From Escherichia coli (lineage in GTDB: Bacteria > Pseudomonadota > Gammaproteobacteria > Enterobacterales > Enterobacteriaceae): a stretch of 64,000 bases of DNA. A program made the position numbers and the translations under genes. Shown here one piece after another: positions 1,676-20,123 of this stretch (position 1 is the stretch's first letter; each line of letters opens with the position of its first letter). The notes below the pieces were generated by a model. That model did no database searches. It had not been told where the DNA came from and was given only the letters and a program-made list of their open reading frames with translations. The stretch lies in NCBI RefSeq assembly GCF_013122565.1, contig NZ_CP053258.1, one strand, 5' to 3'.

Positions 1676-1717
1676 TTAACTCGTTCTATATTAACTCTAA
1701 ATTTCAAGGATATTAAT

Positions 1718-2278: not shown

Positions 2279-2342
2279 TTAATCTACTGGCTGGCAGTAA
2301 ATGTCAGCCAGTATTTCTTTGCACAATTAATAGTGATTTTTC

Positions 2343-3065
2343 ATGGACATGGAAAAGATAAGAATGAACATTTTTGCATATTTACTGGTACTTGTATTTT
2401 CCATGAGCATGAGCAGCAGCGCGTTTGCCAGCGTGGTAATGACCGGAACCCGTATTATTTTCCCTGGTGACGCAAAGGAAAAAACCATCCAGTTGCGAAA
2501 TACCAGCGATCAGCCCTATATCATTAATATCCATGTTGAGGATGAACGTGGTTCTGACAAGAATATACCGTTTATGCCAACCCCGCAGACATTTCGCATG
2601 GAAGCTGCCGCAGGTCAGGCGTTACGCCTGCTCTACACTGGTGATAATTTACCGCAGGATCGCGAGTCTGTTTTCTGGTTTAGTTTCAGTCAACTACCTT
2701 ATCTGAATAAGAACGATAAAAGTCAGAACCAGCTCATCCTGGCCCTGACTAATCGAGTCAAAATTTTCTATCGTCCCAGCTCAATTGTCGGTAAATCCAG
2801 TGACGCGCCAAAAAACCTGACTTACCAAGTAAAACAGAACCGCATTGAAGTGACGAATCCCACGGGCTATTACGTCGTGATTCGCGCCGCTGAACTGCTT
2901 AATAACGGTAAAAAAGTCCCCCTCGCGAATTCCGTCATGATTGCTCCTCAAGGCAAAACTGAATGGACACTACGCACTGGCATCAGCGTCGCTCCCGGTG
3001 CGCAGATTCATTTAGTGACCGTCAATGACTATGGCGTAAATGTCACGTCTGAGCATGCCTTATAA
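2343..3065 (+). CDS. Periplasmic fimbrial chaperone (PapD/FimC family)
   Basis: 240-aa ORF containing a signal peptide and PapD-like motifs (RIIFPGDAKE..., LPQDRESVFWFSF, RVKIFYRP). The true start may be an internal Met (MNIFAYLL...). Confidence 0.85.
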   Translation: MDMEKIRMNIFAYLLVLVFSMSMSSSAFASVVMTGTRIIFPGDAKEKTIQLRNTSDQPYIINIHVEDERGSDKNIPFMPTPQTFRMEAAAGQALRLLYTGDNLPQDRESVFWFSFSQLPYLNKNDKSQNQLILALTNRVKIFYRPSSIVGKSSDAPKNLTYQVKQNRIEVTNPTGYYVVIRAAELLNNGKKVPLANSVMIAPQGKTEWTLRTGISVAPGAQIHLVTVNDYGVNVTSEHAL

Positions 3066-3117
3066 GCTCTTTCCCCTTTTTTGAGCGGTATCCTTTTTCA
3101 CGCACGAGTATGTCGAG

Positions 3118-5640
3118 ATGAATAAATCCGTTGTGTCAATTTCTGCGGCAATATTGGTTTTACTCTGCCAGCCGGTTATGGGGAAAGAAATCTCACCCGC
3201 TACACCGTCAGATGAAGATAACTACACCTTTGACCCGCAACTCTTTCGCGGCAGCAGATTTAGTCAGTCGTCATTGGCAAAACTGACAACTCGTGAGTCT
3301 GTTGCACCGGGTAATTATAAAATGGATATCTACACCAATAATAAGTTGTCAGGCAGTTGGAATGTCACGTTCAAAGAAGCCGCTGATGGTCGCGTTCTGC
3401 CCTGCCTGACGCCTGAAGTCGCGGACGCGATAGGCCTCAAAACAGGGGAAGATAAGGGTGAAAAAGATCCGGTCTGTACCTTTGCTCAGGAACTCGCTCC
3501 CGGCATCACCAGCCAGACACAGTTGTCACAACTACGCCTTGACTTGTCGGTGCCTCAGAGTCAAATGATTAGTCGCCCTCGCGGCTATGTCCCCCCCAGC
3601 GAGCTGGATACCGGAGCATCGCTGGCGTTCATGAATTATATTGCCAACTATTACAACGTTGCCTATTCAGGGCAGAATGCTCATAGCCAGCGTTCGCTAT
3701 GGGCATCATTTAATGGTGGCATCAACCTTGGTGCCTGGCAATATCGTCAGTTATCCAACATGACCTGGGATAATGACAAAGGGAATCAGTGGAACAATAT
3801 TCGTAGCTATTTGCAACGCCCGCTGCCCGCCATAAATAGCCAGTTAATGATGGGGCAGCTTATCACCAGCGGAAGATTTTTCTCTGGACTCAGTTATCAC
3901 GGCGTTAGTCTCGCGACCGATGAACGTATGCTGCCGGACTCCATGCGCGGCTATGCGCCGACTATTCGCGGCGTGGCCGCAACAAACGCCAGAGTCTCGG
4001 TAATGCAAAACGGTCATGAAATATATCAGACCACCGTGGCTCCTGGCCCTTTCGAGATAAACGACCTATACCCCACCAGCTACAGCGGCGATCTGGATGT
4101 CACCGTTACGGAAGCTAACGGCGCAGTCAGTCGTTTCAGTGTCCCCTTTTCAGCCGTACCAGAATCGATGCGTCCAGGAACTTCCCGTTATAACGTGGAA
4201 GTAGGTAAAACGCAGGATAGTGGTGATGACTCGATGTTTGGTGACCTTACCTGGCAGCACGGGATGACTAATACGCTGACATTTAACAGTGGTTCGCGTA
4301 TCGCTGATGGCTACCAGGCGCTGATGCTGGGCGGAGTCTATGGCAGTTCGCTGGGGGCATTTGGGGCAAACCTCACTTGGTCCCATGCGCGTGTTCCCGA
4401 AAGCGAAGCGCAGAGTGGTTGGATGTCGCAATTAACCTGGAGTAAAACTTTCCAGCCTACTTCAACCACCGTCTCCCTGGCAGGTTATCGATACTCTACC
4501 AGCGGCTATCGTGATCTGGCTGATGTGCTGGGAGAGCGTCATGCTGCCAGCAATAAACAGTCATGGGACTCCAGCCAGTGGCGTCAACAGTCGCGCTTCG
4601 ATCTTACGTTAAGTCAGAGCCTTGCGAATTACGGCAACCTGTTTGTGTCAGGTTCAACACAGAACTACCGTGGCGGCAAAAGCCGTGATACACAGCTTCA
4701 GTTAGGTTACAGCAATAGCTTTAGCCATGGCATCAGTATGAACCTTTCCGTCGGACGCCAAAGAATGGGCGGCTATAAAGACAATTCTGATGATATGCAG
4801 ACGGTAACATCCCTTTCATTCTCATTCCCACTTGGCGGCAATGGACCTCGTGTACCAAGTCTTAGCAACAGCTGGACCCATTCAACTGACGGTAGCTCGC
4901 AATTACAAAGCTCGCTAACCGGAATGCTTGATGAAGCACAGACCACCAACTACAGCCTGAACGTCATGCGCGATCAACAATATAAGCAGACGACGCTTAG
5001 CGGAAACATGCAAAAACGTTTTTCACAAACTACCGTCGGATTGAACGCATCGAAGGGCCAGGATTACTGGCAGGCTTCAGGTAACGTACAAGGCGCGATG
5101 GCTGTGCATGGTGGCGGCATTACTTTCGGACCTTATCTGGGTGAAACGTTCGCCCTGGTCGAAGCTAAAGGCGCAGAAGGTGCAAAAGTCTATAACTCCA
5201 GTCAGCTGGAAATTAATGACAGTGGCTATGCGCTTGTTCCGGCAGTAACGCCCTATCGATACAACCGTATATCTCTCGATCCACAAGGAATGGATGGCGA
5301 TGCCGAGTTGGTCGACAGTGAAAGACAGGTAGCACCGGTTGCAGGTGCGGCGGTGAAAGTAATTTTCCGTACCCGTCCTGGTAAAGCGTTGCTGATTAAA
5401 TCCCGCATGGCAGATGGTTCGGAACTGCCAATGGGAGCCGATGTGCTGGATGAGAATAATACAGTCGTCGGTATAGCCGGTCAGGGGGGGCAAATTTACC
5501 TCCGCACAGAACAGACAAAAGGCCACTTGTCAGTTCGCTGGGGTGAAGGTGCTAACGATAGCTGCCAATTGCCCTTTGATATCAGCGGGAAGGACAGCAA
5601 TAGCCCTATCATCCGCCTGAATGAAACCTGTCAGTCTTGA
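3118..5640 (+). CDS. Outer-membrane fimbrial usher (FimD/PapC family)
   Basis: 840 aa with a signal peptide, of typical usher size, placed between a chaperone gene and an adhesin gene. Gln/Ser/Asn-rich beta-barrel composition. Confidence 0.9.
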   Translation: MNKSVVSISAAILVLLCQPVMGKEISPATPSDEDNYTFDPQLFRGSRFSQSSLAKLTTRESVAPGNYKMDIYTNNKLSGSWNVTFKEAADGRVLPCLTPEVADAIGLKTGEDKGEKDPVCTFAQELAPGITSQTQLSQLRLDLSVPQSQMISRPRGYVPPSELDTGASLAFMNYIANYYNVAYSGQNAHSQRSLWASFNGGINLGAWQYRQLSNMTWDNDKGNQWNNIRSYLQRPLPAINSQLMMGQLITSGRFFSGLSYHGVSLATDERMLPDSMRGYAPTIRGVAATNARVSVMQNGHEIYQTTVAPGPFEINDLYPTSYSGDLDVTVTEANGAVSRFSVPFSAVPESMRPGTSRYNVEVGKTQDSGDDSMFGDLTWQHGMTNTLTFNSGSRIADGYQALMLGGVYGSSLGAFGANLTWSHARVPESEAQSGWMSQLTWSKTFQPTSTTVSLAGYRYSTSGYRDLADVLGERHAASNKQSWDSSQWRQQSRFDLTLSQSLANYGNLFVSGSTQNYRGGKSRDTQLQLGYSNSFSHGISMNLSVGRQRMGGYKDNSDDMQTVTSLSFSFPLGGNGPRVPSLSNSWTHSTDGSSQLQSSLTGMLDEAQTTNYSLNVMRDQQYKQTTLSGNMQKRFSQTTVGLNASKGQDYWQASGNVQGAMAVHGGGITFGPYLGETFALVEAKGAEGAKVYNSSQLEINDSGYALVPAVTPYRYNRISLDPQGMDGDAELVDSERQVAPVAGAAVKVIFRTRPGKALLIKSRMADGSELPMGADVLDENNTVVGIAGQGGQIYLRTEQTKGHLSVRWGEGANDSCQLPFDISGKDSNSPIIRLNETCQS

Positions 5641-5655
5641 TACAGAGAAAACCCG

Positions 5656-6990
5656 ATGTCTAAATCGACTTTATTACACATTCTGATTAGCTCCATCATA
5701 TTGGTGGCACTAATACAATCATCCGCTTGGGCTAACTGTACAAACACACAGATAGGTCAAACTGAAGATGGTCGGACAGCGCTTATTGAGTTCGGAAAAA
5801 TTAATATGACCGACACCTATTTTGCGCCAGCAGGTTCACTCCTCGCGACAACGGTCGTACCTCCCACTAACTACACATCAGGTGGCGCGACAGGAAGCTC
5901 AGTATTGTGGGAATGTGATGCAACAGATTTGCCAAACATCTATTTTCTGGTCGCTACCAATGGCGACGACCGCGTGGGGGGCTTTTACGATGCAGGCGGG
6001 CCTGATGGTCTGAGTGATGTCTATGCCACCTGGTTCGCTTTTGTCGGTCTCAAGCAGACCATGGCGGGCGTGACGCTTGGTCGTTACTGGAAGAAAGTGC
6101 CCATCACCAGTTATGCCACTCAGGGAACTAAAATCCAGATTCGCTTACAGGATATCCCTCCTCTTCATGCTGAGCTTTATCGCATCAGTACGCTACCTGA
6201 TACATCAGCAACAACAAGTTGGTGCGGTAATAATAATACAGATGGTAGTGGAGTCGGATTCGCAAAACCTTCCGGTACAATCTATAACTGTGTTCAGCCC
6301 AATGCCTATATTCAGCTTTCCGGTACCAGCGGCATTTTATTTGGTCATGATGAGCCCGGCGAAGATAGTTCTGTTCATTGGGATTTCTGGGGTGCTGATA
6401 ATGGTTTTGGTTACGGAATGCGTTCGGCCAATCGACTCTACAACAATGCCACCTGCGTTGCCCGCAGCGCCACGCCGTTAGTATTGCTGCCGACAATTGC
6501 AGAAGCACAACTGAATGCGGGCATGGAAAGTACCGGTAATTTTAATGTCCGCGTCGAGTGTAGTAACTCGGTTCAATCAGGGATTAGCGATACTCAGACA
6601 GCATTAGGAATCCAGGTGTCTGAAGGTGCATATACAGCGGCGCAAAAACTGGGGATTATCAATAGCAACGGCGGCGTCAGCGCCCTGGTCTCTGATAATT
6701 ATGACGCAGCAGAGATGGCAAAGGGCGTTGGGATCTACATTTCTAACAGTGCTCACCCCGATACGGCGATGACGCTGGTTGGTCAACCGGGCATCGCGAA
6801 GTTAACCCCCGGAGGAAATGCAGCGGGGTGGTATCCTGTATTTGAAGGGGCAACATTAGAAGGTGCGACTCACCCCGGATACTCCAGCTATAGTTACTCT
6901 TTTATCGCCCGGTTGAAGAAACTGCCAAATCAGACAGTCAGTGCGGGAAAAGTGCGGGCAACGGCTTATATATTGGTGAAAATGCAATGA
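5656..6990 (+). CDS. Putative fimbrial tip adhesin (two-domain: N-terminal lectin-like domain plus C-terminal pilin domain)
   Basis: 444 aa with a signal peptide (MSKSTLLHILISSIILVALIQSSAWA) and several Cys pairs. Pilin-like C-terminus ...VRATAYILVKMQ. Located after the usher; its stop overlaps the downstream chaperone start (ATGA). Confidence 0.6.
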   Translation: MSKSTLLHILISSIILVALIQSSAWANCTNTQIGQTEDGRTALIEFGKINMTDTYFAPAGSLLATTVVPPTNYTSGGATGSSVLWECDATDLPNIYFLVATNGDDRVGGFYDAGGPDGLSDVYATWFAFVGLKQTMAGVTLGRYWKKVPITSYATQGTKIQIRLQDIPPLHAELYRISTLPDTSATTSWCGNNNTDGSGVGFAKPSGTIYNCVQPNAYIQLSGTSGILFGHDEPGEDSSVHWDFWGADNGFGYGMRSANRLYNNATCVARSATPLVLLPTIAEAQLNAGMESTGNFNVRVECSNSVQSGISDTQTALGIQVSEGAYTAAQKLGIINSNGGVSALVSDNYDAAEMAKGVGIYISNSAHPDTAMTLVGQPGIAKLTPGGNAAGWYPVFEGATLEGATHPGYSSYSYSFIARLKKLPNQTVSAGKVRATAYILVKMQ

Positions 6991-7676
6991 AATCCGTTTT
7001 GCTCCTCTTAACCGTCTTGTTCGTACAGTCAGTGGAAGCCGGCATCATGCCGGCTTCTTCACGGATTATTTATCGCGATGGCGATCGGGAAAAGACACTG
7101 ATGCTGGTCAATACCAATGACTATCCGGTACTGGTGCAAAGTTGGGTAGATAATGGTGAAGGTTCCCCAGAATCTGCTTCTCCCCCCTTTGTGGTGCTGC
7201 CACCGGTTTTCCGCCTGGCTGCGAGACGAACCCAGGGGTTGCGGATTATCTATAATCATGACCCACTTCCCCAGGATCGCGAATCTGCATTCTGGTTAAA
7301 TCTTTATGAAATGCCGCCAGAAACTCCCCATCAAGATCCCACACATTTAACGCTGGCAATGAATACGCAACTTAAAATCTTTTACAGGCCAAAATCTGTA
7401 ACTATGACGCCCCAAGAAGCTATGCGTAAAATAAGTTGGCATCTGGGTAACGACGGCAGCAGTAGCTATATTGAGCTTAATAACCCAACACCACTGAATA
7501 TCTCTTTCACCTCCATCAGCATTGGGGCTACAAAGGTGCAGCAAGAAAGCGATATGATGATAAAACCCTTCAGTCAACGACGGTACTGGTTAGCAAGTAA
7601 TAACGTTAGTGGTGTGGTTGCGGCGACATATCTCGATGATAATGGTGCACAGATAAAACAACAATTAGCGCAATAA
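6987..7676 (+). CDS. Second periplasmic fimbrial chaperone (PapD-like)
   Basis: 229 aa with a signal peptide and the motifs RIIYRDGDREKTLMLVN, LPQDRESAFWLN and LKIFYRPKS. Start codon overlaps the adhesin stop codon, suggesting translational coupling. Confidence 0.8.
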   Translation: MKSVLLLLTVLFVQSVEAGIMPASSRIIYRDGDREKTLMLVNTNDYPVLVQSWVDNGEGSPESASPPFVVLPPVFRLAARRTQGLRIIYNHDPLPQDRESAFWLNLYEMPPETPHQDPTHLTLAMNTQLKIFYRPKSVTMTPQEAMRKISWHLGNDGSSSYIELNNPTPLNISFTSISIGATKVQQESDMMIKPFSQRRYWLASNNVSGVVAATYLDDNGAQIKQQLAQ

Positions 7677-7821
7677 TGCTCTGAGTGGTATGTAAACTCA
7701 TCGCGATGGTTCAACGCTAACGAATAACCACTATACCCACCTGAAGTACCGGAAGTGGAGAAATGACAACATCTCTCCACTCCATTTTCCAGTCAAAACA
7801 CCTCAACGCAGCCAAAAATCG

Positions 7822-8613
7822 TTAACGAATTGAATATCCACCATCAATGACTAATAGTTGTCCATTGACATAATCTGAAGCGGCACTGGCGAGGAACACC
7901 ATTGCGCCCATAAGATCCTGTGCCCTTCCCCAGCGTTGAGCCGGTATACGCCCTTTTATTAACTCTTTTATTTTAGGGTTATTATAAATAATAGCGGTCA
8001 TTTCACTCACATAATATCCTGGGGCGATACCATTAATCTGAATATTATATTCCGCAAAATCATCGGCATACGCTTTGGTCAGCCCCGCTAAAGCATGTTT
8101 AGTCGCCGCATACCCTGGCGACCAACGTCCCCCATGAAATGACAATACGGAACACATATTAATAATTTTCCCTTTTCTTTGCGGGACAAATATATTCAAT
8201 GCGGCCTGGCTCATATCGAATGCAGCATTCAGGTTGAGATTAATCATCGGATCCCAGTCGTTTCGATTGAAATCGATAGGACGATTAAAGTTACACACGC
8301 CCGCGTTATTGACCAGAATATCTAACTGACCGAAACGCTCCAGACACCTATTAATAATGGTGCATGCTGCATCAGGTTTTGTTATGTCTATTGTCATAAA
8401 CTCAACTTCAACGCCTTCATGAGTTAAATGCTTTAAATATCTATTATCAGGCTCTTTGATGTCTACCAACAATAGATTAGCCCCTGCTTTGGCCAGAGCC
8501 GAGCATAAGCCTCTCCCCAGCTCACCCGCGGCCCCAGTTACGATGGCCACCTTGTTATGTAATGAAAAAAAATCCAATGAAAAATCTTCAATAGAAAAGC
8601 TCATATCACACAT
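7822..8613 (-). CDS. Short-chain dehydrogenase/reductase, KduD-like (2-dehydro-3-deoxy-D-gluconate 5-dehydrogenase paralog)
   Basis: 263 aa. Rossmann motif VAIVTGAAGELG, NNAG motif, catalytic Y-x3-K (SPGYAATKHA), and a C-terminus ASDYVNGQLLVIDGGYSIR closely resembling KduD. Start may be the Met three codons downstream. Confidence 0.8.
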   Translation of the reverse strand: MCDMSFSIEDFSLDFFSLHNKVAIVTGAAGELGRGLCSALAKAGANLLLVDIKEPDNRYLKHLTHEGVEVEFMTIDITKPDAACTIINRCLERFGQLDILVNNAGVCNFNRPIDFNRNDWDPMINLNLNAAFDMSQAALNIFVPQRKGKIINMCSVLSFHGGRWSPGYAATKHALAGLTKAYADDFAEYNIQINGIAPGYYVSEMTAIIYNNPKIKELIKGRIPAQRWGRAQDLMGAMVFLASAASDYVNGQLLVIDGGYSIR

Positions 8614-9291
8614 TGCTCCTTATGAGTAAGTAATATTTAAGGGATAATTTAAGTAATTTTTAGATTTCAATAAAAAAATATAAACATTAAAACTCAGCAT
8701 GAATAATAAACATCAAATCTTATATACATTTAAGTAGTGATGTATCACGTAAAAATATAGTCATCATAGATGTTATGCAGTACGCACAAAAAAACAGACT
8801 GGATTTGCTTGCTGATCTATAATCTTTATCTAAATTACTATTGGCGCTTTGGATAATAACATAAGCATATATTACCTCCTAGCAATAATAGACATAACCT
8901 CATATCAAGGTGTCACTGGTAAATAATCGGATAAAGGACAGTACCGGTCGGCACATAGAGCTTCTTCTATTTCACCAGAAGTGCACAGCAGGGAACTACC
9001 AATCACACGGTTAGTGTCATGGGTGGAGGATGCGTCCCGTTCTTTCCCAATAACGGGGATACGCAGTTTTTATCAGTACATGCAGAAAAACCCCTAATTC
9101 ACATCACTGCAGAAAGCATTTAATAGAAATATACATCGTTTAAGAATTTCAATTAAATCAAGATTATTCTTAAAAATCAGATAATTCACATTTGCATTTT
9201 TAGGAAATTATACTATAGTGCAATTAATGTTCTTGCCTTTATTTTGTAAGTAATACTGGATTTGTAATACACAACTAAGGTATAAAATGTA

Positions 9292-10104
9292 ATGATCTAC
9301 ATTATAAATGATGAAGTAAGATTCAACTCATCATCTAATAAGTTAACATCACTCCTTACATCAGAGGAAGTGATACTCACTTATCCTGCGGGAAAATGCT
9401 TAAAATTACTTTTAGATAACGCTTATAGTGTCGTATCGCACAATCAATTCTTTGAAAAAGTCTGGAGCGATAGCAGCGCTGAAGTCGCAACCAATACTTT
9501 ATATCAAAACATTTCGATGATAAGACGCTCCTTTCGTGAAATCAGCTCATCGACGATATTTAATGATATTATCAGAACGGTGCCGCGTAAGGGTTTTAAA
9601 ATCAATGAAGAAATCAACATAACTGTTCTCGACAATAATCATACTGAGAATGAAAGTGTTGAGAGTGAAGAGGATGGTACCCACATTGAAAATATAAATA
9701 AAAATCATGTTGCAAAAGATATTTTCACCACAAAGAATACATTACTTATAGTGTACTTTTTTGCGGCATGGGGGATAGTGTATATATCTTCTTATTTTTT
9801 CGATATGGCTTTTCAAAGCAAAGCTCACACTATAAAAAAAACAGATGCTTTCTCAAATTATGCTCAACATCCTACTCAGGAAGGGTGTAGCTATTTCTAT
9901 GACAATATATATTTTAATTCCGTAGACATGTTATCACCGATTATTGAAAAATTGCAGAAAATGGAAATTAACTGCAAAATACATCCTTACATTTACATTG
10001 CAACAAATGATAGCATGAGCGGGTTTTATGCTTTCACCTGTAGTCAGATGTTAAACTCTGAATCACCAAATAATTGTAATTCTCTCTATTATAAAGCGGA
10101 GTAA
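9292..10104 (+). CDS. Membrane-anchored ToxR/CadC/MarT-like transcriptional regulator (N-terminal OmpR-type winged helix, one TM segment, Cys-containing periplasmic domain); resembles E. coli YqeI
   Basis: 270 aa. Winged-helix signature ...FFEKVWSDSSAEVATNTLYQNISMIRRSF...IIRTVPRKGFKI. Acidic linker followed by a hydrophobic segment NTLLIVYFFAAWGIVYISSYFF. About 100-aa C-terminal domain with four or more Cys. A GG-containing RBS-like motif lies upstream of the ATG. Confidence 0.7.
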   Translation: MIYIINDEVRFNSSSNKLTSLLTSEEVILTYPAGKCLKLLLDNAYSVVSHNQFFEKVWSDSSAEVATNTLYQNISMIRRSFREISSSTIFNDIIRTVPRKGFKINEEINITVLDNNHTENESVESEEDGTHIENINKNHVAKDIFTTKNTLLIVYFFAAWGIVYISSYFFDMAFQSKAHTIKKTDAFSNYAQHPTQEGCSYFYDNIYFNSVDMLSPIIEKLQKMEINCKIHPYIYIATNDSMSGFYAFTCSQMLNSESPNNCNSLYYKAE

Positions 10105-10108
10105 TCAT

Positions 10109-10600
10109 ATGACTCAAAGATATTTTCTATTTGCGGGAATAATTTTATGTGCTTTTATTGCAGCAATTCTTAGCCATATTGCGTTTCATCATGCCAATGA
10201 ACCAGCAGAGCAAAACATATCATGTAATGCCCATGTTATTAATTTCACCGATCATACGAAAATGGATCAATACTTTTCGTTAAATATGATTTCTGAAAAT
10301 AATACAGGGAATATGTATCTCACGGGTGCTTACACGGTAAATGGGAAAAAAATGGGTTTCATCCGCCGATATGTGAGTTTTACATACAAGAAATTCCGTG
10401 ATACCGTTTATTTCACCACAGTTAAAATACAAAAAATACAAAAAGATGATAACATTAGTGATGAAATCCTTGAAAATATCACTTCTGATTTTTTCATAAA
10501 AGTAGACACCTCAATTAATTTTTATGTTACACGTCAAAATGATTACAACTACGTATTCTCTACAGGCAGGACACCACGCTTCATATGTATTTCCCACTAA
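10109..10600 (+). CDS. Small N-terminally anchored periplasmic partner protein (ToxS/FidL/YqeJ-like) of the upstream ToxR-like regulator
   Basis: 163 aa. Starts 4 nt after the upstream stop (coupled). Single N-terminal TM (YFLFAGIILCAFIAAILSHIAF) followed by an Asn/Thr-rich periplasmic domain. Size and arrangement match ToxS/FidL-type partners. Confidence 0.5.
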   Translation: MTQRYFLFAGIILCAFIAAILSHIAFHHANEPAEQNISCNAHVINFTDHTKMDQYFSLNMISENNTGNMYLTGAYTVNGKKMGFIRRYVSFTYKKFRDTVYFTTVKIQKIQKDDNISDEILENITSDFFIKVDTSINFYVTRQNDYNYVFSTGRTPRFICISH

Positions 10601-10700
10601 CAGTAGTGTTGATCATTGCGCTTGTCATCAGATAATAACCTTCTGATGGCTTTGTTTATATTTTAAGGCAATAAAAAACATTCCAATATTGGTTAATTAT

Positions 10701-12215
10701 TTATCTGTTTACATACCACTGATAAAACTCTGTCGCTTTCATTGGTTTTGCATATAAGTACCCCTGAACTAATGTCACGTTATTATGAATAAGATATTCC
10801 GCCTGGTGAGGAGAACTGACACCTTCTGCAATCGTTATCAAATTTAGTCGATTACTCAGCTTAATAATAATATCTAAAACTGGCGTTTCGTCTTCCGCTG
10901 TAGTGAGTGTGTCTATAAAGCTTTTATCTATTTTAAGATAATCAACAGACAACTTTTGTAGAAGGCCAAGGGAACAATATCCCGTGCCAAAATCATCAAC
11001 TGCAAATTCACAGCCATGGATCCTTAATTCATTTATTTTCTGTAATGCAAGATCAGTGTCTTCAACCAGATTGCGTTCGGTAATCTCAAGGACAATATTA
11101 AATTTATCAGATATTGCATTTTTAATATGTAAAACATCAGCAACAAAGTCAGGATGTGCAAGATGTTCCGCGGCAATATTTATCCCAAGGTGAAACGGTT
11201 TTTTCACTTTCCAGCTTTGTACATCCTGAATAATCAGTTCAAAGAGATGCTTAGTTAACGGTATTATTAAATTTTCCTCTTCTGCCGCGCGGATAAAAAC
11301 TACCGGAGATATATTTTTACCATCTTCGCGTTGCCAGCGCATTAACGCTTCAACCCCCAGACACGCTTTGGTTGTCGTGTCGCACACTGGTTGATAATGC
11401 ACAGAAAATTCTCCGGATGACATTCCTTTTTTAATTTCTTCTGCCAGCGACATTTTCCGTGACATCCAGTGCTGCCATAAGAAATAGAGAATAAAAGAAA
11501 GAATAATAGATAACGGCAAAATATAAAGCACATTGCTAATGATATAGGGATATAACGAAATCATCGGCGTAGTAACTGTAAGACGAGCCTGACTGTTCGC
11601 AGAATTAAAATCTCTTTTTAACATATATAACCTGTCATTATTATTTACACCACTAATAATTGCAGGCCCTTCAGTAAAGCGAAGAGAAAATGAATCATCA
11701 TTCTCATCATCAAGAACATCCATTAGATCATAGATATATCGTGACTCGACAATACTAAAAGCTGTCATATTATTCCCTAATGGCATAAGGAACACTATGG
11801 CTGTTTTACCTGGTACAAAACTTGTTCCGCTAATTGATACTATGCGTGATTCTTTATTTTTATTGTGAAAGCTCGTACCGTAAACATCGTTAACATTCAT
11901 TTTTTTGAAACCGCTAACTGAAGAACATATTTGGAAATTATTTTCTATAAGACCCGTTGTTCGAACATAGGGAGTCAATGCTCCGTTAGCAATCAACTGC
12001 TCCAGGATATCTTTGCAGGGTTTCATCACCAGAATAGAAGTAAGCTTTGTCGTATGCTGGACAATTTGCGTAACATTATCAAGCTGTTTTAACAGAATAC
12101 CGGCGGTAATTGTCGTATCTCTATTCATTTGAAATATTGACATAGCAAACGATAGTAACACCCCCAGAATGCCTGGTATTATAATGAGTACAAACATTTT
12201 TTTGTTGAATACCAT
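10701..12215 (-). CDS. pdeT: CSS-motif EAL-domain c-di-GMP phosphodiesterase (PdeT/VmpA-like), absent from K-12
   Basis: ORF 10701..12311. Probable start is the Met at 12215 (MVFNKKMFVLIII...), immediately before TM1. Periplasmic domain with CSS motif (QICSSVSG) and a second Cys, then TM2. EAL domain with intact EAL (GVEALMRW), LEITE and DDFGTGY motifs. The gene name is assigned from memory of the EHEC vmpA/pdeT locus next to dgcT. Confidence 0.75.
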   Translation of the reverse strand: MVFNKKMFVLIIIPGILGVLLSFAMSIFQMNRDTTITAGILLKQLDNVTQIVQHTTKLTSILVMKPCKDILEQLIANGALTPYVRTTGLIENNFQICSSVSGFKKMNVNDVYGTSFHNKNKESRIVSISGTSFVPGKTAIVFLMPLGNNMTAFSIVESRYIYDLMDVLDDENDDSFSLRFTEGPAIISGVNNNDRLYMLKRDFNSANSQARLTVTTPMISLYPYIISNVLYILPLSIILSFILYFLWQHWMSRKMSLAEEIKKGMSSGEFSVHYQPVCDTTTKACLGVEALMRWQREDGKNISPVVFIRAAEEENLIIPLTKHLFELIIQDVQSWKVKKPFHLGINIAAEHLAHPDFVADVLHIKNAISDKFNIVLEITERNLVEDTDLALQKINELRIHGCEFAVDDFGTGYCSLGLLQKLSVDYLKIDKSFIDTLTTAEDETPVLDIIIKLSNRLNLITIAEGVSSPHQAEYLIHNNVTLVQGYLYAKPMKATEFYQWYVNR

Positions 12216-12408
12216 ACATGTTTCCCCACGCATCAGGGTGATGCAACCTAAGAAATTATAGTACAATTGCCAGTAAAAGCGGGTGATAGCAGATTGATCA
12301 ATGATAAGCATTTAAGATCATATAGTACTATGATATTTCTGAAAATTGTTACGCAAGTCTGCGAATAGCTATTTAGCGCTTACCAAAATCACCCGCTAAA
12401 ATGCCGCT

Positions 12409-13767
12409 TCATGGTGACTCACAAAAATTCACCACATCCCTCACAACCACCTTATTACGCCCGGTCTCTTTCGCCTCGTATAGTGCGTTATCAGCCAGTC
12501 GATAGATCTCATTCGGGTTTAACGCATTTTCCTGAGTCACAACAGCGCCAATACTAATCGTCACTTTTTGTGGTATGGCGTATTCAGGATTATCGCCAGT
12601 TAAACGCTCAACATTTTCCCGAATCCTTTCCGCTAAAGCTTTCGCACGTTCAGTATCGATGTCCGTCAGCAAGACGCCAAACTCTTCGCCGCCGACGCGC
12701 GCAAAAAGGTCATCTGGCCGTATGCTTTTCCCAATGATATTCACCACTGTTTTTATCACCTGATCGCCAACCGGATGCCCCCAGGTATCGTTGACTTTTT
12801 TGAAGTGGTCGATATCCATAATCATGACGCAATAAGGCGTTTTTTTGGCTGATGCTGATTGAACTGTCAGTTCATTAAAAAAATAATTTCTGTTAAATAT
12901 ATTGGTTAAGGAATCGCGATGTGCAATGTCCTTTGTTACTCGTAGCGCACTGAATATATGGCACATAAATATTACCATAACGGTTAACTTACTGACTACT
13001 TCAATAGTGCGACTAATATACCAAGTGGACACGCTATACCTGCTCATAAATAACAGAGAGATATTGTACAGTACGGCACAAAAAGCAATCACCGTCACTC
13101 CATTCCAGATATCATAGCGTAAACCATTAAAGTATAGATTAACCGAAAGCAAGGTTAACCACATGAAAATCATTATGGTAACATATGATGTTTTCCAAAC
13201 CACCTGATCATTTTCATTGGTTAACTCGGCAATGTGTAAATTGTAGCTCTCATAATGACTAGAAAGTATGTGAGCAACTATCGGCCCCCCAACAACAAAA
13301 AACAAACTTATGCACAAAGTCATTTTTTTGGAAAATAAATTGCGCTGTTTTGTGTTTTCACTAACTTTACTCACCAATGCCAGAAATATTAATATGCACA
13401 AACTCATCTGACGAAACAAATAATAAATTGCAATGTCATTTTGAACAACACTGCTTGTCAAACGCCCCTCAATAATTTGCTGAATGATAATGACGGTTTT
13501 AACAAAGTAAATCAAACAACTCAGAAAAGCCAAACTAAGTATACAGTTTGAAAATTGCCTACGGTCATAAATGAAATACAACTGCATAAAAATAAATGCA
13601 ACAGTATCGATAAAAAATAAAGCAATCATTACCATCAGATAGGTTGATCGTGGAACAACTTCCTCAACGCCTGGCTGATTAAACCAACTATTCACCAAAA
13701 CCAAAGCAAGCCCAAACAATAAGCTCACTAATACAGTACTACTAATTCTCAAATAGTCTTTTTCCAT
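12409..13767 (-). CDS. dgcT: Diguanylate cyclase DgcT (YcdT): multi-TM sensor domain plus GGDEF domain
   Basis: Near-identical to K-12 YcdT from MEKDYLRISS... (the ORF extends 24 codons further upstream to 13839). GGEEF active site and RPDD I-site are present. Divergent from pgaA, as in K-12. Confidence 0.95.
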   Translation of the reverse strand: MEKDYLRISSTVLVSLLFGLALVLVNSWFNQPGVEEVVPRSTYLMVMIALFFIDTVAFIFMQLYFIYDRRQFSNCILSLAFLSCLIYFVKTVIIIQQIIEGRLTSSVVQNDIAIYYLFRQMSLCILIFLALVSKVSENTKQRNLFSKKMTLCISLFFVVGGPIVAHILSSHYESYNLHIAELTNENDQVVWKTSYVTIMIFMWLTLLSVNLYFNGLRYDIWNGVTVIAFCAVLYNISLLFMSRYSVSTWYISRTIEVVSKLTVMVIFMCHIFSALRVTKDIAHRDSLTNIFNRNYFFNELTVQSASAKKTPYCVMIMDIDHFKKVNDTWGHPVGDQVIKTVVNIIGKSIRPDDLFARVGGEEFGVLLTDIDTERAKALAERIRENVERLTGDNPEYAIPQKVTISIGAVVTQENALNPNEIYRLADNALYEAKETGRNKVVVRDVVNFCESP

Positions 13768-14119
13768 AAAGCTACACCAATCTGTAGGTTGTAGATCCCT
13801 TTCTATTATTAATAGATATAAGAACTGTACTGTTGTCAATATGAAATTCCGACCACAAACAATACCGATGATGATAGTTGCAGCCGCAATTATTATTACC
13901 TTAGTGCTTTATACATTCTTTGCGACAAGACAGGCTTGCAAATACTTATAAATGGTTATAAGGAAATCCTTATGAAACATTAATTCATAGATAGATTAGG
14001 AATAACAATTGAATCCGTGAGTACAGTAACGCTGCATTTCATCAGGACTTTCGAAAAATCCGATATCATGCATCGGAATTTACTGATTTAATTATTTTAA
14101 TCCTAATTTATTTTGAAAA

Positions 14120-14354
14120 AGGCATTGGGATTTATGCCGTATTCCTGAAGATCCTCATCATTGGAATGGATTTTCGGGCGACAAAAGGATTTTATATGGA
14201 CACTCTGCTCATCATTTCTTCTTCTCATCATCAACAATTCACGTCTCTCTTCCGCGTTTAATAACGGATTATGAGGTGCAAAAAATATCTTTCTTTTCAG
14301 TTACCTGTAATTAGATACAGAGAGAGATTTTGGCAATACATGGAGTAATACAGG
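14120..14354 (+). promoter_or_regulatory. pgaA 5' leader with multiple GGA motifs (CsrA-binding type), the last overlapping the SD and start codon
   Basis: Several GGA motifs are seen (ttgggatt, ttggaatggatt, aaaggatt, atatggaca, aacggatt, catggagtaatacaggATG). It is established that CsrA represses pgaA translation via its leader. Confidence 0.5.
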
Positions 14355-16778
14355 ATGTATTCAAGTAGCAGAAAAAGGTGCCCGAAAACCAAATGGGCTT
14401 TGAAAATTCTTACTGCCGCATTTTTAGCAGCGAGTCCCGCGGCGAAGTGTGCTGTTAATAACGCCTATGATGCATTGATTATTGAAGCTCGCAAGGGAAA
14501 TACTCAGCCAGCTTTGTTATGGTTTGCACAAAAATCAGCACTCAGTAATAACCAGATTGCTGACTGGTTACAGATTGCCTTATGGGCCGGGCAAGATAAA
14601 CAGGTTATTACCGTTTACAACCGCTACCGTCATCAGCAATTACCAGCGCGTGGTTATGCAGCTGTCGCCGTAGCTTATCGTAACCGGCAACAATGGCAAA
14701 ACTCGCTTACACTGTGGCAAAAGGCGCTCTCTCTGGAGCCGCAAAATAAGGATTATCAACGGGGACAAATTTTAACCCTGGCAGATGCGGGTCACTATGA
14801 TACTGCGCTGGTTAAACTTAAGCAGCTTAACTCTGGAGCACCGGACAAAGCCAATTTACTCGCAGAAGCTTATATCTATAAACTGGCGGGGCGTCATCAG
14901 GATGAATTACGGGCGATGACAGAGTCATTACCTGAAAATGCATCTACGCAACAATATCCCACAGAATACGTGCAGGCATTACGTAATAATCAACTTGCTG
15001 CCGCGATTGACGATGCCAATTTAACGCCAGATATTCGCGCTGATATTCATGCCGAACTGGTCAGACTGTCGTTTATGCCTACGCGCAGTGAAAGTGAACG
15101 TTATGCCATTGCCGATCGCGCCCTCGCCCAATACGCTGCATTAGAAATTCTGTGGCATGATAACCCAGACCGCACTGCCCAGTACCAGCGTATTCAGATT
15201 GATCATCTTGGTGCGTTATTAACTCGCGATCGTTATAAAGACGTTATTTCTCACTATCAGCGTTTAAAAAAGACGGGGCAAATTATTCCGCCCTGGGCGC
15301 AATATTGGGTTGCGTCGGCTTATCTCAAAGATCATCAGCCGAAAAAAGCACAGTCAATAATGACCGAGCTCTTTTATCACAAGGAGATCATTGCCCCGGA
15401 TTTATCCGATGAAGAACTTGCGGATCTCTTTTACAGCCACCTGGAGAGTGAAAATTATCCCGGCGCGCTAACTGTCACCCAACATACCATTAATACTGCG
15501 CCGCCTTTCCTTCGGTTAATGGGCACGCCTACGAGCATCCCGAATGATACCTGGTTACAGGGGCATTCGTTTCTCTCAACCGTAGCAAAATATAGTAATG
15601 ATCTTCCTCAGGCTGAAATGACAGCCAGAGAGCTTGCTTATAACGCACCAGGAAATCAGGGACTGCGCATTGATTACGCGAGTGTGTTACAAGCCCGCGG
15701 TTGGCCTCGTGCAGCAGAAAATGAATTAAAAAAAGCAGAAGTGATCGAGCCACGTAATATTAATCTGGAGGTTGAACAAGCCTGGACAGCATTAACGTTA
15801 CAAGAATGGCAGCAGGCAGCTGTCTTAACGCACGATGTTGTCGAACGTCAACCGCAAGATCCCGGCGTTGTACGTTTAAAACGTGCGGTTGATGTACATA
15901 ATCTTGCAGAGCTTCGTATAGCTGGTTCAACAGGAATTGATGCCGAAGGCCCGGATAGTGGTAAACATGATGTCGACTTAACCACCATCGTTTATTCACC
16001 ACCGCTGAAGGATAACTGGCGCGGTTTTGCTGGATTCGGTTATGCCGATGGACAATTTAGCGAAGGAAAAGGGATTGTTCGCGACTGGCTGGCGGGTGTT
16101 GAGTGGCGGTCACGTAATATCTGGCTCGAGGCGGAGTACGCTGAACGCTTTTTCAATCATGAGCATAAACCCGGCGCGCGCCTGTCTGGCTGGTATGATT
16201 TTAATGATAACTGGCGTATCGGTTCGCAACTGGAACGCCTCTCTCACCGCGTTCCATTACGGGCAATGAAAAATGGTGTTACAGGCAACAGTGCTCAGGC
16301 TTATGTTCGCTGGTATCAAAATGAGCGGCGTAAGTACGGTGTCTCCTGGGCTTTCACTGATTTTTCCGACAGTAACCAGCGTCATGAAGTCTCAATTGAG
16401 GGTCAGGAACGCATCTGGTCTTCACCATATTTGATTGTCGATTTCCTACCCAGTCTGTATTACGAACAAAATACAGAACACGATATCCCATACTACAACC
16501 CTATAAAAACGTTCGATATTGTTCCGGCATTTGAGGCAAGTCATTTGTTATGGCGTAGCTATGAAAATAGCTGGGAGCAAATCTTCAGCGCAGGTGTTGG
16601 TGCCTCCTGGCAAAAACATTATGGCACGGATGTCGTCACCCAACTCGGCTACGGGCAACGCATTAGCTGGAATGACGTGATTGATGCTGGCGCAACGCTA
16701 CGCTGGGAAAAACGACCTTATGACGGTGACAGAGAACACAACTTATACGTTGAATTCGATATGACATTCAGATTTTAA
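14355..16778 (+). CDS. pgaA: PGA (poly-beta-1,6-N-acetylglucosamine) outer-membrane export porin PgaA
   Basis: 807 aa; matches K-12 PgaA (MYSSSRKRCPKTKWALKILTAAFLAASPAAK...); TPR-rich N-terminal domain and C-terminal beta-barrel. Confidence 0.95.
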   Translation: MYSSSRKRCPKTKWALKILTAAFLAASPAAKCAVNNAYDALIIEARKGNTQPALLWFAQKSALSNNQIADWLQIALWAGQDKQVITVYNRYRHQQLPARGYAAVAVAYRNRQQWQNSLTLWQKALSLEPQNKDYQRGQILTLADAGHYDTALVKLKQLNSGAPDKANLLAEAYIYKLAGRHQDELRAMTESLPENASTQQYPTEYVQALRNNQLAAAIDDANLTPDIRADIHAELVRLSFMPTRSESERYAIADRALAQYAALEILWHDNPDRTAQYQRIQIDHLGALLTRDRYKDVISHYQRLKKTGQIIPPWAQYWVASAYLKDHQPKKAQSIMTELFYHKEIIAPDLSDEELADLFYSHLESENYPGALTVTQHTINTAPPFLRLMGTPTSIPNDTWLQGHSFLSTVAKYSNDLPQAEMTARELAYNAPGNQGLRIDYASVLQARGWPRAAENELKKAEVIEPRNINLEVEQAWTALTLQEWQQAAVLTHDVVERQPQDPGVVRLKRAVDVHNLAELRIAGSTGIDAEGPDSGKHDVDLTTIVYSPPLKDNWRGFAGFGYADGQFSEGKGIVRDWLAGVEWRSRNIWLEAEYAERFFNHEHKPGARLSGWYDFNDNWRIGSQLERLSHRVPLRAMKNGVTGNSAQAYVRWYQNERRKYGVSWAFTDFSDSNQRHEVSIEGQERIWSSPYLIVDFLPSLYYEQNTEHDIPYYNPIKTFDIVPAFEASHLLWRSYENSWEQIFSAGVGASWQKHYGTDVVTQLGYGQRISWNDVIDAGATLRWEKRPYDGDREHNLYVEFDMTFRF

Positions 16779-16786
16779 GGATAAAT

Positions 16787-18805
16787 ATGTTACGTAATGG
16801 AAATAAATATCTCCTGATGCTGGTGAGTATAATTATGCTCACTGCGTGCATTAGCCAGTCAAAAACATCATTTATACCGCCACAGGATCGCGAGTCTTTA
16901 CTCGCCGAGCAACCGTGGCCGCATAATGGTTTTGTGGCGATTTCATGGCATAACGTTGAAGACGAAGCTGCCGACCAGCGTTTTATGTCAGTGCGGACAT
17001 CAGCACTACGTGAACAATTTGCCTGGCTGCGCGAGAACGGTTATCAACCGGTCAGTATTGCTCAAATTCGTGAAGCACATCGAGGAGGAAAACCGCTACC
17101 GGAAAAAGCAGTAGTGCTGACTTTTGATGACGGCTACCAGAGTTTTTATACCCGCGTCTTCCCAATTCTCCAGGCCTTCCAGTGGCCTGCTGTATGGGCC
17201 CCCGTCGGCAGTTGGGTCGATACGCCAGCGGATGAACAAGTAAAATTTGGCGATGAGATGGTCGATCGAGAATATTTTGCCACGTGGCAACAAGTGCGAG
17301 AAGTTGCGCGTTCCCCGCTCGTTGAAGTCGCTTCTCATACATGGAATTCTCACTACGGTATTCAGGCTAATGCCACCGGCAGCTTATTGCCTGTATATGT
17401 AAATCGTGCATATTTTACTGACCACGCACGGTATGAAACCGCAGCAGAATACCGGGAAAGAATTCGTCTGGATGCTGTAAAAATGACGGAATACCTGCAT
17501 ACAAAGGCTAAGGTAAATCCACACGTTTTTGTTTGGCCTTATGGCGAAGCGAATGGCATAGCGATAGAGGAATTAAAAAAACTCGGTTATGACATGTTCT
17601 TCACCCTTGAATCAGGTTTGGCAAATGCGTCGCAATTGGATTCCATTCCGCGAGTATTAATCGCCAATAATCCCTCATTAAAAGAGTTTGCCCAGAAAAT
17701 TATTACCGTACAGGAAAAATCACCACAACGGATAATGCATATCGATCTTGATTACGTTTATGACGAAAACCGCCAGCAAATGGATCGCAATATTGATGTG
17801 CTAATTCAGCGGGTGAAAGATATGCAAATATCAACCGTGTATTTGCAGGCATTTGCTGATCCCGATGGTGATGGGCTGGTCAAAGAGGTCTGGTTTCCAA
17901 ATCGTTTGCTACCAATGAAAGCAGATATTTTTAGTCGGGTTGCCTGGCAATTACGTACCCGCTCAGGTGTAAACATCTATGCGTGGATGCCGGTATTAAG
18001 CTGGGATTTAGATCCCACATTAACGCGAGTAAAATACTTACCAACTGGGGAGAAAAAAGCACAAATTCATCCTGAACAATATCGCCGTCTCTCGCCTTTT
18101 GATGACAGGGTCAGAGCACAAGTTGGCATGTTATATGAAGATCTTGCCGGACATGCTGCTTTTGATGGCCTATTGTTCCACGATGATGCTTTGCTTTCAG
18201 ATTATGAAGATGCCAGTGCACCGGCTATCGCGGCTTATCAGCAAGCAGGCTTTAGCGGGAGTCTGAGCGAAATTCGACAAAACCCGGAGCAATTTAAACA
18301 GTGGACCCGCTTTAAAAGTCGTGCGTTAACTGACTTCACTTTAGAACTTAGTGCGCGCGTAAAAGCCATTCGTGGTCCACATGTTAAAACTGCACGAAAT
18401 ATTTTTGCACTTCCGGTAACACAACCTGAAAGTGAAGCCTGGTTTGCACAGAATTATGCTGATTTCCTAAAAAGCTATGACTGGACTGCTATTATGGCTA
18501 TGCCTTATATGGAAGGTGTCGCAGAAAAATCGGCTGATCAATGGTTAATACAACTGATCAATCAGATTAAAAGCATCCCTCAGGCTAAAGACAAATCTAT
18601 TTTAGAATTACAGGCACAAAACTGGCAGAAAAATGGTCAGCATCAGGCTATTTCTTCGCAACAACTCGCTCACTGGATGAGCCTATTACAACTGAATGGA
18701 GTGAAAAACTATGGTTATTATCCCGACAATTTTCTGCATAACCAACCTGAAATAGACGTTATTCGTCCTGAGTTTTCAACAGCCTGGTATCCGAAAAATG
18801 ATTAA
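16787..18805 (+). CDS. pgaB: PGA N-deacetylase lipoprotein PgaB
   Basis: 672 aa; lipoprotein signal (LTACIS); matches K-12 PgaB. Confidence 0.95.
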
Positions 18806-20123
18806 TCGCATCGTATCGTTTTTTATATTATGTCTGGTGTTATGCATACCCCTATGCGTAGCGTACTTTCACTCTGGTGAACTGATGATGAGGTTCGTTT
18901 TCTTCTGGCCGTTTTTTATGTCCATTATGTGGATTGTTGGCGGCGTCTATTTCTGGGTCTATCGTGAACGCCACTGGCCGTGGGGAGAAAACGCACCAGC
19001 TCCCCTGTTGAAAGATAATCCGTCTATCTCCATTATCATTCCCTGTTTTAATGAGGAGAAAAACGTTGAGGAAACCATACACGCCGCTTTAGCACAGCGT
19101 TATGAGAACATTGAAGTTATTGCCGTAAATGACGGTTCAACAGATAAAACCCGTGCCATCCTGGATCGCATGGCTGCACAAATTCCCCATTTGCGGGTCA
19201 TTCATCTGGCGCAAAACCAGGGGAAAGCCATTGCGCTTAAAACCGGAGCTGCCGCGGCGAAAAGTGAATATCTGGTGTGCATTGATGGCGACGCGTTATT
19301 AGACCGCGATGCGGCGGCATATATTGTGGAACCGATGTTGTACAACCCGCGTGTGGGTGCCGTAACCGGTAATCCTCGTATTCGCACACGTTCTACCCTG
19401 GTGGGTAAAATTCAGGTTGGCGAGTATTCCTCAATTATTGGTTTGATCAAGCGAACCCAGCGTATCTATGGAAACGTATTTACCGTTTCCGGTGTTATTG
19501 CCGCATTTCGTCGCAGCGCCCTGGCAGAGGTGGGTTACTGGAGTGACGATATGATCACCGAAGATATTGATATTAGCTGGAAGCTGCAGTTGAATCAGTG
19601 GACGATTTTTTACGAGCCTCGGGCGCTGTGCTGGATATTAATGCCTGAAACGTTAAAAGGGCTGTGGAAACAGCGCCTGCGCTGGGCTCAGGGCGGTGCA
19701 GAAGTATTCCTCAAAAATATGACAAGGCTATGGCGCAAAGAAAACTTTCGAATGTGGCCACTGTTTTTTGAATACTGCCTGACAACAATATGGGCCTTCA
19801 CCTGCCTGGTCGGTTTCATTATTTACGCAGTCCAACTTGCCGGTGTACCGTTAAATATTGAATTGACACATATCGCTGCGACACATACTGCCGGAATATT
19901 ATTGTGTACGTTATGTTTACTGCAATTTATTGTCAGCCTGATGATCGAGAATCGCTATGAGCATAATCTGACTTCATCGCTTTTCTGGATTATTTGGTTC
20001 CCGGTTATTTTCTGGATGCTGAGCCTGGCAACGACATTGGTATCATTTACACGAGTCATGTTGATGCCTAAAAAGCAACGCGCCCGTTGGGTAAGTCCTG
20101 ATCGCGGGATTCTGAGAGGTTAA
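18798..20123 (+). CDS. pgaC: PGA synthase (GT2 glycosyltransferase) PgaC
   Basis: 441 aa; GT2 motifs ([12 protein letters not shown]); start overlaps pgaB. Confidence 0.95.

Follow-up and report, generated by a model that had tools for sequence, protein, structure and literature searches.

The adjacent dgcT and pdeT genes of an Escherichia coli chromosome and the border of O-island 47

Introduction

Does a diguanylate cyclase gene followed directly by the gene of an antagonistic phosphodiesterase mark a dedicated cyclic di-GMP (c-di-GMP) circuit, or do two such genes adjoin for another reason? The question is raised by dgcT (ycdT) and pdeT (vmpA), which stand in tandem beside the genes for poly-N-acetylglucosamine (PGA) in a 64,000-nucleotide stretch of an Escherichia coli chromosome (RefSeq assembly GCF_013122565.1, contig NZ_CP053258.1; hereafter the window). 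An earlier note on this DNA, made from the letters and a list of open reading frames (ORFs), recognized both genes and proposed that a co-localized cyclase and phosphodiesterase beside the c-di-GMP-dependent PGA machinery imply a local signalling circuit. We found that the region most probably represents the right-hand border of O-island 47 (OI-47) in an E. coli that is neither K-12 nor O157, and that the pair adjoins owing to the position of the island, a reading to which we give a probability of roughly 0.8.

The dgcT-pdeT pair, the class of PdeT, the island, and the absence from K-12 are all already published (PMC4287979, PMC5897775, PMC4076661). Richter 2014 drew vmpA/pdeT (Z1528) directly downstream of ycdT (PMC4287979), and Herbst 2018 counted PdeT/VmpA as the sixth CSS phosphodiesterase, a further member of the class in certain enterohaemorrhagic and enteropathogenic E. 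coli (EHEC/EPEC) strains (PMC5897775). In reviews vmpA is assigned to OI-47, with Branchu et al. 2013 as the source for its phosphodiesterase activity and for effects on biofilm and motility. OI-47 is 31,727 bp long and comprises z1528-z1556. Our analysis makes modest additions to this picture, namely the occurrence of the pair outside O157 and O55, the prevalence of an IS3-associated deletion, the last 10 dgcT codons supplied by the island-type arrangement, and adhesin genes, not a cyclase, as the neighbours of PdeT-family genes where neighbours are conserved.

Results

The pair at the border of O-island 47

The minus strand carries two long ORFs in head-to-tail order between positions 10701 and 13839. 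The first, dgcT (12409-13767, minus strand, the end at 12409 including the stop codon), encodes a 452-residue MASE4-GGDEF diguanylate cyclase when taken from the ATG at 13767. The second, pdeT (10701-12215, minus strand), is the orthologue of Z1528 and encodes a CSS-domain EAL phosphodiesterase of 504 residues, as judged from its ORF, its Pfam domains, and the start-codon argument given below. The window belongs to the E. coli chromosome, and over 25 kb its DNA matches strain 100181 at 99.0% identity and O157:H7 at 98.3%. Because the lineage of the window differs from O157, the pair is not confined to O157 and O55 as some reviews state.

In B2 strains such as 536 the island is absent and a tRNA-Ser gene (serX) is located ~100 bp from dgcT. 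The homology of the window to B2-type genomes stops at 12443, inside the dgcT ORF, and this end together with the protein alignment delimits a segment of the last 10 dgcT codons plus the stop codon (12409-12441, minus strand). The island-less DgcT has 455 residues and ends in ...KEAEILINRKDDE before its stop codon, whereas the island-type protein ends in ...RDVVNFCESP. A divergent Escherichia locus (L017) is likewise serX-adjacent and encodes a 455-residue DgcT that is 77% identical, with the homologous end ...TEAENLMNWKDDD and with flanking DNA that is 82-90% identical. This locus was the one real relative obtained when genome contigs were searched with DgcT for outgroup contexts, the rest of the hits being contaminants or unrelated GGDEF domains. 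Since the B2 strains and L017 share both the serX adjacency and the 455-residue DgcT end, the simplest reading of the sequences, drawn from one outgroup lineage and the B2 strains, takes the island-less state as the ancestral one. With the island-type arrangement, pdeT and a new 10-codon dgcT tail would have arrived together, and the adjacency of the two genes would be a consequence of where the island lies.

Downstream of serX, a unit of ~180 bp that is annotated as RtT small RNA (sRNA) occurs in tandem, in one to three copies (L017, 8370-8850; the K-12 locus L002, 3413-4043). The copy number of this unit varies between strains, and the units of L017 carry partial tRNA-Ser 3' ends. The array resembles an integration hotspot linked to serX at the edge of the island.

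IS3-associated loss of pdeT

In K-12 and ECOR29, a 1258-bp IS3 element abuts the 3' end of dgcT, and K-12 has no pdeT (K-12 locus L002, IS3 at 5744-7001; ECOR29 locus L003). The right end of IS3 is fixed in both strains, 10 bp beyond the dgcT stop codon at the position corresponding to 12397/12398 of the window. Beyond IS3 are a 5'-truncated acyl carrier protein (ACP) S-malonyltransferase gene, known as the ymdE pseudogene, and then ycdU, while in O157 the island that opens with pdeT closes at its far end with a full-length ACP S-malonyltransferase gene and ycdU. The left breakpoints of IS3 inside the malonyltransferase gene differ by 185 bp between K-12 and ECOR29. With left junctions this far apart and without a 3-bp target duplication, the fixed right end and the differing left ends indicate, at the sequence level, IS-mediated adjacent deletions, either successive or independent.

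The gap in K-12 relative to the O157 strain TR01 amounts to ~31.7 kb, the published size of OI-47, and K-12 keeps the island-type DgcT C-terminus. Because IS3 abuts dgcT, ~31.7 kb is gone, and the island-type tail is kept, K-12 did lose pdeT. This agrees with the earlier note, which had placed IS3 at the position of the lost phosphodiesterase gene, but the event is not peculiar to K-12. In a junction census of 5426 complete genomes, dgcT was detected in 4220; the K-12-type IS3-dgcT junction was present in 2298 genomes, the serX-dgcT junction without the island in 1121, and the full dgcT-pdeT pair in 382. The genomes in which dgcT stands at a junction that excludes pdeT thus number 3419 (2298 with IS3 and 1121 with serX), against 382 with both genes. 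A chimeric junction query detected an intermediate with inserted IS3 and retained pdeT in 0 of the 5426 genomes, and the short extensions of matches into the spacer part of this query were chance similarity. Most A/B1-type genomes, K-12 among them, have lost ~31.7 kb of island DNA with pdeT in it to an IS3 copy located 10 bp past the dgcT stop codon.

Genomic neighbourhoods of PdeT relatives

The nearest relatives of PdeT outside E. coli are 51-56% identical and belong to Enterobacter, Klebsiella, Citrobacter, Lelliottia, and Serratia, followed by a second tier at 35-41%. We compared the neighbourhoods of 11 PdeT-family proteins at 12 loci from Enterobacter, Klebsiella, Citrobacter, Lelliottia, and Brenneria, a small sample that was not systematically chosen. 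A GGDEF gene within 7-8 kb was found at none of the 12 loci, either in the Pfam listing or by tblastn with DgcT. An adjacency of cyclase and phosphodiesterase conserved across taxa, by which a dedicated module would be recognized, appears neither at these loci nor in the E. coli census.

Within the window, pdeT is convergent with a pair of OI-47 genes on the plus strand (9292-10600), which encode a membrane-anchored ToxR-family winged helix-turn-helix (wHTH) regulator of 270 residues (Pfam Trans_reg_C) and, from a gene beginning 4 bp later, a partner of 163 residues. The two proteins are 95% and 99% identical to their O157 counterparts, respectively. By position and description the regulator fits GrvA (z1531), the MarT-like ToxR-family regulator of OI-47, for which the published targets are the enterocyte effacement locus (LEE) and acid resistance. 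The 163-residue protein has no match in Pfam or NCBIfam, and its link to YqeJ/FidL-like proteins comes from a single BLASTP match (E 1.5e-17). Homologues of the YqeI/YqeJ or MarT/FidL kind adjoin the Klebsiella PdeT relative, and the Enterobacter wHTH protein is weakly similar. A chaperone-usher fimbrial operon, recognized from its ORFs and from the annotation of orthologous loci, occupies 1052-7676 on the plus strand and encodes an 840-residue usher, a 444-residue fimbrial protein, and two chaperones.

Together with a gene for a KduD-like short-chain dehydrogenase/reductase (SDR; 7822-8613), the operon forms a run of uninterrupted ORFs in the window (1052-8613). In other strains some of these genes are broken: the usher gene is frameshifted in the O157 strain TR01, and strain 2012C-4221 has a frameshift in the SDR gene and an internal stop codon in the wHTH gene.

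Fimbrial genes homologous to those of the window are present at three of the 12 loci outside E. coli, and in two of the three (Klebsiella L047 and Enterobacter L013) a homologue of the window's ToxR-like regulator is detectable as well. In the case of K. pneumoniae L047, a CSS-EAL gene whose product is 40% identical lies beside a homologous fimbrial operon (usher 40% identical, E 0; a 444-residue fimbrial protein) and beside homologues of both the wHTH regulator (E 5e-37) and the 163-residue protein (E 1.5e-17). The Citrobacter-type locus L051 combines a homologous chaperone-usher operon (usher 40% identical, 444-residue fimbrial protein) with a Trans_reg_C/FidL_like pair, for which no homology to the regulator proteins of the window was detected by tblastn. 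The Enterobacter hormaechei locus L013 has a PdeT relative that is 55% identical, with genes for fimbriae, for a Trans_reg_C protein, and for a FidL_like protein beside it. At L015 and L016, two further loci from Citrobacter, the gene directly upstream of the PdeT relative encodes a giant invasin-like adhesin. The remaining seven loci are without nearby adhesin genes. Where a PdeT-family gene has a recurrent partner at all, this partner is an adhesin module, not a cyclase.

L051 also contains a second EAL-only gene (482 residues) with its own Trans_reg_C and FidL_like pair (14341-17314), ~5 kb from the PdeT-like gene; because this gene has its own pair, the arrangement of regulator pair and EAL gene is duplicated there.

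These neighbourhoods suggest, tentatively, that PdeT could be a functional part of the island's adhesin module, comprising the fimbriae and the GrvA/FidL-like pair, and could link adhesin expression to c-di-GMP and periplasmic redox, with DgcT as an incidental neighbour. The fimbrial loci of Klebsiella, Citrobacter, and Enterobacter and the invasin-like adhesins of L015 and L016 are what this proposal would lead one to expect, although the Citrobacter-type regulator pair is not detectably homologous to that of the window. Against it are the seven loci without adhesin genes, a gene orientation that varies between species, the published targets of GrvA, which do not include fimbriae, and the size and unsystematic choice of the sample. 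We consider the proposal possible but, on this evidence, more doubtful than convincing.

Start codon, spacer, and transcription

The Prokaryotic Genome Annotation Pipeline (PGAP) of RefSeq calls pdeT as a 536-residue protein with its start at 12311 and a spacer of 97 bp. An alternative ATG at 12213-12215, which is Met33 of the long ORF, gives 504 residues and a spacer of 193 bp (12216-12408, minus strand). A Shine-Dalgarno-like GGGGAA (12222-12227) is positioned 6 nt upstream of this ATG, the N-terminus of 72 of 109 family members falls 0-2 residues from the Met33 column, and the 32-residue N-terminal extension is confined, among family members, to E. coli annotation. For these three reasons the Met33 start is better supported by the sequences, and the RefSeq/PGAP gene appears 32 codons too long. 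With this start, the same-strand tandem arrangement with a spacer of about 190 bp described in the earlier note is obtained almost exactly.

By eye, a perfect TATAAT is visible at 12255-12260, 39 nt upstream of the ATG and with a C at -13, as a candidate -10 box of pdeT; it falls within the extension annotated by PGAP. In the promoter and terminator scan of the spacer, the single consensus promoter match is at chance level, and no terminator-like site was found between dgcT and pdeT. The spacer RNA folds with -60.5 kcal/mol, compared with -46.8 +/- 4.4 for shuffled sequences (z -3.1). Microarrays of EDL933 report a 9-fold lower level of Z1528 in an rpoS mutant (P 0.024), and ycdT is not among the RpoS-dependent genes in the text and two supplements of that study. 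Expression of ycdT is reported to be very weak (PMC4287979), and four of the five K-12 CSS phosphodiesterases are controlled by sigma-S, the RpoS sigma factor (PMC5897775). The RpoS dependence of Z1528, the missing listing of ycdT, the weak expression of ycdT, and the prevailing sigma-S control of the K-12 class together favour a separate pdeT promoter. Expression of pdeT is probably sigma-S dependent and started from its own promoter in the spacer. Some read-through co-transcription and some coupling of the two genes are possible, since the spacer is structured as RNA and has no terminator-like site.

A further feature of the spacer is an inverted repeat of two perfectly matching 10-nt arms (AGCGGGTGAT / ATCACCCGCT), one at 12278-12287 and the other, 100 nt away, at 12388-12397; the K-12-type IS3 end adjoins the outer edge of one of these arms. 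The 120-bp segment bounded by the repeat was considered as a repeated mobile element and rejected, as it occurs in a single copy in each of 388 genomes; one of the 388 spacer matches is on a plasmid record and not on a chromosome. An Rfam scan of 8000-15000 gave sub-threshold snoRNA noise only, and the spacer has no Rfam match.

The spacer also bears on the proposal of the earlier note, by which DgcT and PdeT are a dedicated, co-transcribed antagonistic pair that sets a local c-di-GMP pool for PgaCD, with an adjacency that is functional. The two genes share a strand and a 193-bp spacer without a terminator-like site, the spacer RNA is structured, and the spacer is conserved between the window and O157 at 99.0%, slightly above pdeT (96.3%) and dgcT (98.8%). 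DgcT and PdeT both belong to the inner membrane, dgcT and pgaABCD diverge, and an action of DgcT on PGA has been suggested (PMC4287979). However, none of the 12 PdeT-family loci in five genera has a GGDEF gene nearby, the adjacency coincides with the island border, and 3419 genomes keep dgcT at an IS3 or serX junction that leaves no room for pdeT. The good -10 and Shine-Dalgarno elements just upstream of pdeT, the RpoS dependence of Z1528 with ycdT unlisted, and the reportedly very weak expression of ycdT likewise speak for independent expression. A dedicated circuit is thus unlikely, and the comparative evidence lends no support to deducing one from adjacency. The island position, the lack of GGDEF neighbours at the 12 loci, and the adhesin neighbours argue against postulating one on adjacency alone, and the different DgcT end of the island-less lineages accords with this.

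The DgcT and PdeT proteins

We assigned MASE4 to residues 41-274 of DgcT (Pfam, E 1.9e-68) and a full-length GGDEF domain to residues 282-439 (E 2.4e-50). The GGEEF active site (A-site) is formed by residues 359-363 (codons at 12679-12693, minus strand), and the RxxD inhibitory site (I-site) by RPDD at residues 350-353 (12709-12720, minus strand). RPDD lies five residues upstream of GGEEF, so that both sites are intact according to the definition in PMC4287979. DgcT is 98% identical to both its K-12 and its O157:H7 counterpart, and by these features it is an inner-membrane MASE4-GGDEF diguanylate cyclase orthologous to K-12 b1025. Product inhibition would act through the RxxD site. As a separate observation, residue 286 (12910-12912) in the RDPLTN motif that opens the GGDEF domain, usually Pro, is Ser in the window (RDSLTN); the same P286S is present in strain 2012C-4221 and absent from K-12, O157, and 536.

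The control region between dgcT and pgaA (13768-14354) has 34% G+C and separates dgcT from the divergent pgaABCD operon for PGA synthesis and export, which begins at 14355 according to the ORF map and the annotation of orthologous loci, with pgaA, pgaB, and pgaC at 14355-20123 on the plus strand. The PgaCD synthase is activated by c-di-GMP, and CsrA represses pgaA and ycdT.

PdeT matches the CSS-motif domain (Pfam, E 9.9e-13) and the EAL domain (E 5.1e-64), with the CSS motif at residue 97, EAL at 289, and DDFGTGY at 407. Hydropathy predicts two transmembrane segments, TM1 spanning roughly residues 1-30 and TM2 roughly residues 221-248, so that the protein runs from TM1 through a periplasmic CSS domain and TM2 to an EAL domain in the cytoplasm. 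The CSS domain between TM1 and TM2 comprises residues 32-190 (11646-12122, minus strand), and by this topology only Cys67 (codon 12015-12017, minus strand) and Cys97 in the CSS motif (codon 11925-11927, minus strand) of the six cysteines are periplasmic. Both occupy invariant columns when PdeT is aligned with the five CSS phosphodiesterases of K-12 (PdeB, PdeC, PdeD, PdeG, PdeN), and they coincide with Cys75 and Cys106 of PdeC. In PdeC these two residues form a DsbA/DsbB-dependent disulfide that lowers activity, and PdeC and PdeB are subject to redox control and to processing by DegP/DegQ (PMC5897775).

The EAL domain (residues 259-491; 10743-11441, minus strand) was delimited by Pfam, by alignment to paralogues, and by alignment to the nearest solved structure in the PDB, the EAL domain of PA3825, itself a CSS protein (E 1.2e-44). 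Its core set is complete, with E289, R293, N346, E377, E380, D407, D408, K428, D430, E464, and Q484, and these 11 residues as well as Cys67 and Cys97 are invariant in all 109 PdeT-family members. Glu217 of PA3825, the first Glu of the EGVE signature, aligns with E464. The sole deviation is the second Glu of this signature, which is Ser467 in PdeT (10815-10817), so that the motif reads EGVS. At this position Thr, Ser, or Asn is found in 89 of the 109 members and Glu in 18, while all five K-12 CSS phosphodiesterases have Glu; the O157 orthologue likewise has EGVS. In this comparison EGVS is a subfamily trait and not a sign of decay. That a Ser in what is regarded as a signature motif, where all five K-12 paralogues have Glu, weakens PdeT catalytically or makes it a c-di-GMP sensor or a trigger protein is highly improbable, since the catalytic base is the first motif Glu (E464, the equivalent of PA3825 Glu217), the remaining metal- and substrate-binding residues are invariant in the 109 relatives, and the EGVS-bearing O157 orthologue is described as a c-di-GMP phosphodiesterase. 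EGVS was consequently rejected as a mark of EAL inactivity.

PdeT shares 97% identity with VmpA/PdeT of EHEC O157:H7 at the syntenic position, with 15 amino-acid differences. By sequence, PdeT is a sixth CSS-domain EAL phosphodiesterase, and both genes of the pair are intact with every core catalytic residue. The gene-level statements of the earlier note were therefore confirmed: the identities of DgcT and PdeT (98% and 97% to the O157:H7 proteins, the latter from the alignment with VmpA/PdeT that the note had recommended), the intact GGEEF and I-site, the EAL, DDFGTGY, and CSS motifs, the two periplasmic cysteines, the catalytic residues, none of which is missing, and the adjoining PGA operon. 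What the comparative data do not support is the step from these genes to a local circuit.

Discussion

The end of homology inside dgcT, the exchanged DgcT tail, the serX-adjacent island-less loci, and the IS3 junctions are consistent with one another in placing the dgcT-pdeT junction at the border of OI-47. Several observations weigh against our account of the pair. Recombination at the serX-linked hotspot could confuse the ancestral state, which was derived from one outgroup and the B2 strains. The spacer has no terminator-like site, and its RNA is unusually structured. The redox control known from PdeC and PdeB (PMC5897775) may not extend to PdeT, and the second Glu of EGVE is Ser in PdeT, though this trait belongs to the subfamily and recurs in the O157 protein, which is reported to be active.

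A more far-reaching account would be that PdeT defines a CSS-EAL subfamily, with EGV followed by Ser, Thr, or Asn, that travels with adhesin islands, these being composed of chaperone-usher fimbriae or invasin-like adhesins and a GrvA/MarT-FidL-like pair. One such island would have landed on the 3' end of dgcT and rewritten its last codons, and the chance pair would later have been lost through IS3 deletions in most of the species. The main task of PdeT would accordingly be redox-gated c-di-GMP control of the island adhesins and not antagonism to DgcT. We put this forward as a speculative extension, more doubtful than probable.

By analogy with PdeC and PdeB (PMC5897775), PdeT in the oxidized state may be held at weak activity by a Cys67-Cys97 disulfide closed by DsbA/DsbB. 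Under reducing or micro-aerobic conditions, the free-thiol form would dimerize via TM2 and hydrolyse c-di-GMP, and, again by analogy, DegP/DegQ could cut this form into an active fragment of TM2 and the EAL domain. PdeT may lower the c-di-GMP that DgcT contributes to the activation of PgaCD.

The pair is an instance of lineage variation in the c-di-GMP enzyme set of E. coli. About 7% of the complete genomes carry a sixth CSS phosphodiesterase, probably redox-gated by analogy with its paralogues, beside the PGA locus, and K-12 is unusable for studying it. The K-12 state represents an old IS3-associated deletion common to 42% of the complete genomes.

Comparison with known systems

The closest counterpart is VmpA/PdeT (Z1528) of O157:H7 EDL933, which is also directly downstream of dgcT as the first gene of OI-47 and has the same neighbours, namely the 163-residue protein, the GrvA-like regulator, the SDR gene, and the fimbrial operon. 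The CSS, EAL, DDFGTGY, and EGVS motifs are identical at 97% protein identity, but the two proteins differ at 15 positions and the window comes from another lineage. DgcT of K-12 (YcdT, b1025) shares with the protein of the window 98% identity, the MASE4 and GGDEF domains, GGEEF, RxxD, the divergent orientation relative to pgaABCD, and the island-type C-terminus; in K-12, however, IS3 instead of pdeT follows the gene, and P286S is present in the protein of the window. PdeC (YjcC) and PdeB have the same architecture of TM1, CSS loop, TM2, and EAL domain as PdeT, with two aligned periplasmic cysteines and the full core EAL residues. In contrast, the identity is merely 25%, PdeT has EGVS in place of EGVE, and redox and proteolytic control are known for PdeC and PdeB.

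Other EAL phosphodiesterase genes are attached to fimbrial loci, among which we take MrkJ (type 3 fimbriae of Klebsiella) and PdeY/SfaY (S fimbriae) to be the nearest parallels. PdeT differs from both in having a CSS sensor domain and in sitting outside the fimbrial operon. PdeY/SfaY is mentioned in PMC5635171. In each case, a c-di-GMP phosphodiesterase gene shares an island with a chaperone-usher operon and a dedicated regulator, an arrangement that recurs around the PdeT relatives of Klebsiella, Citrobacter, and Enterobacter.

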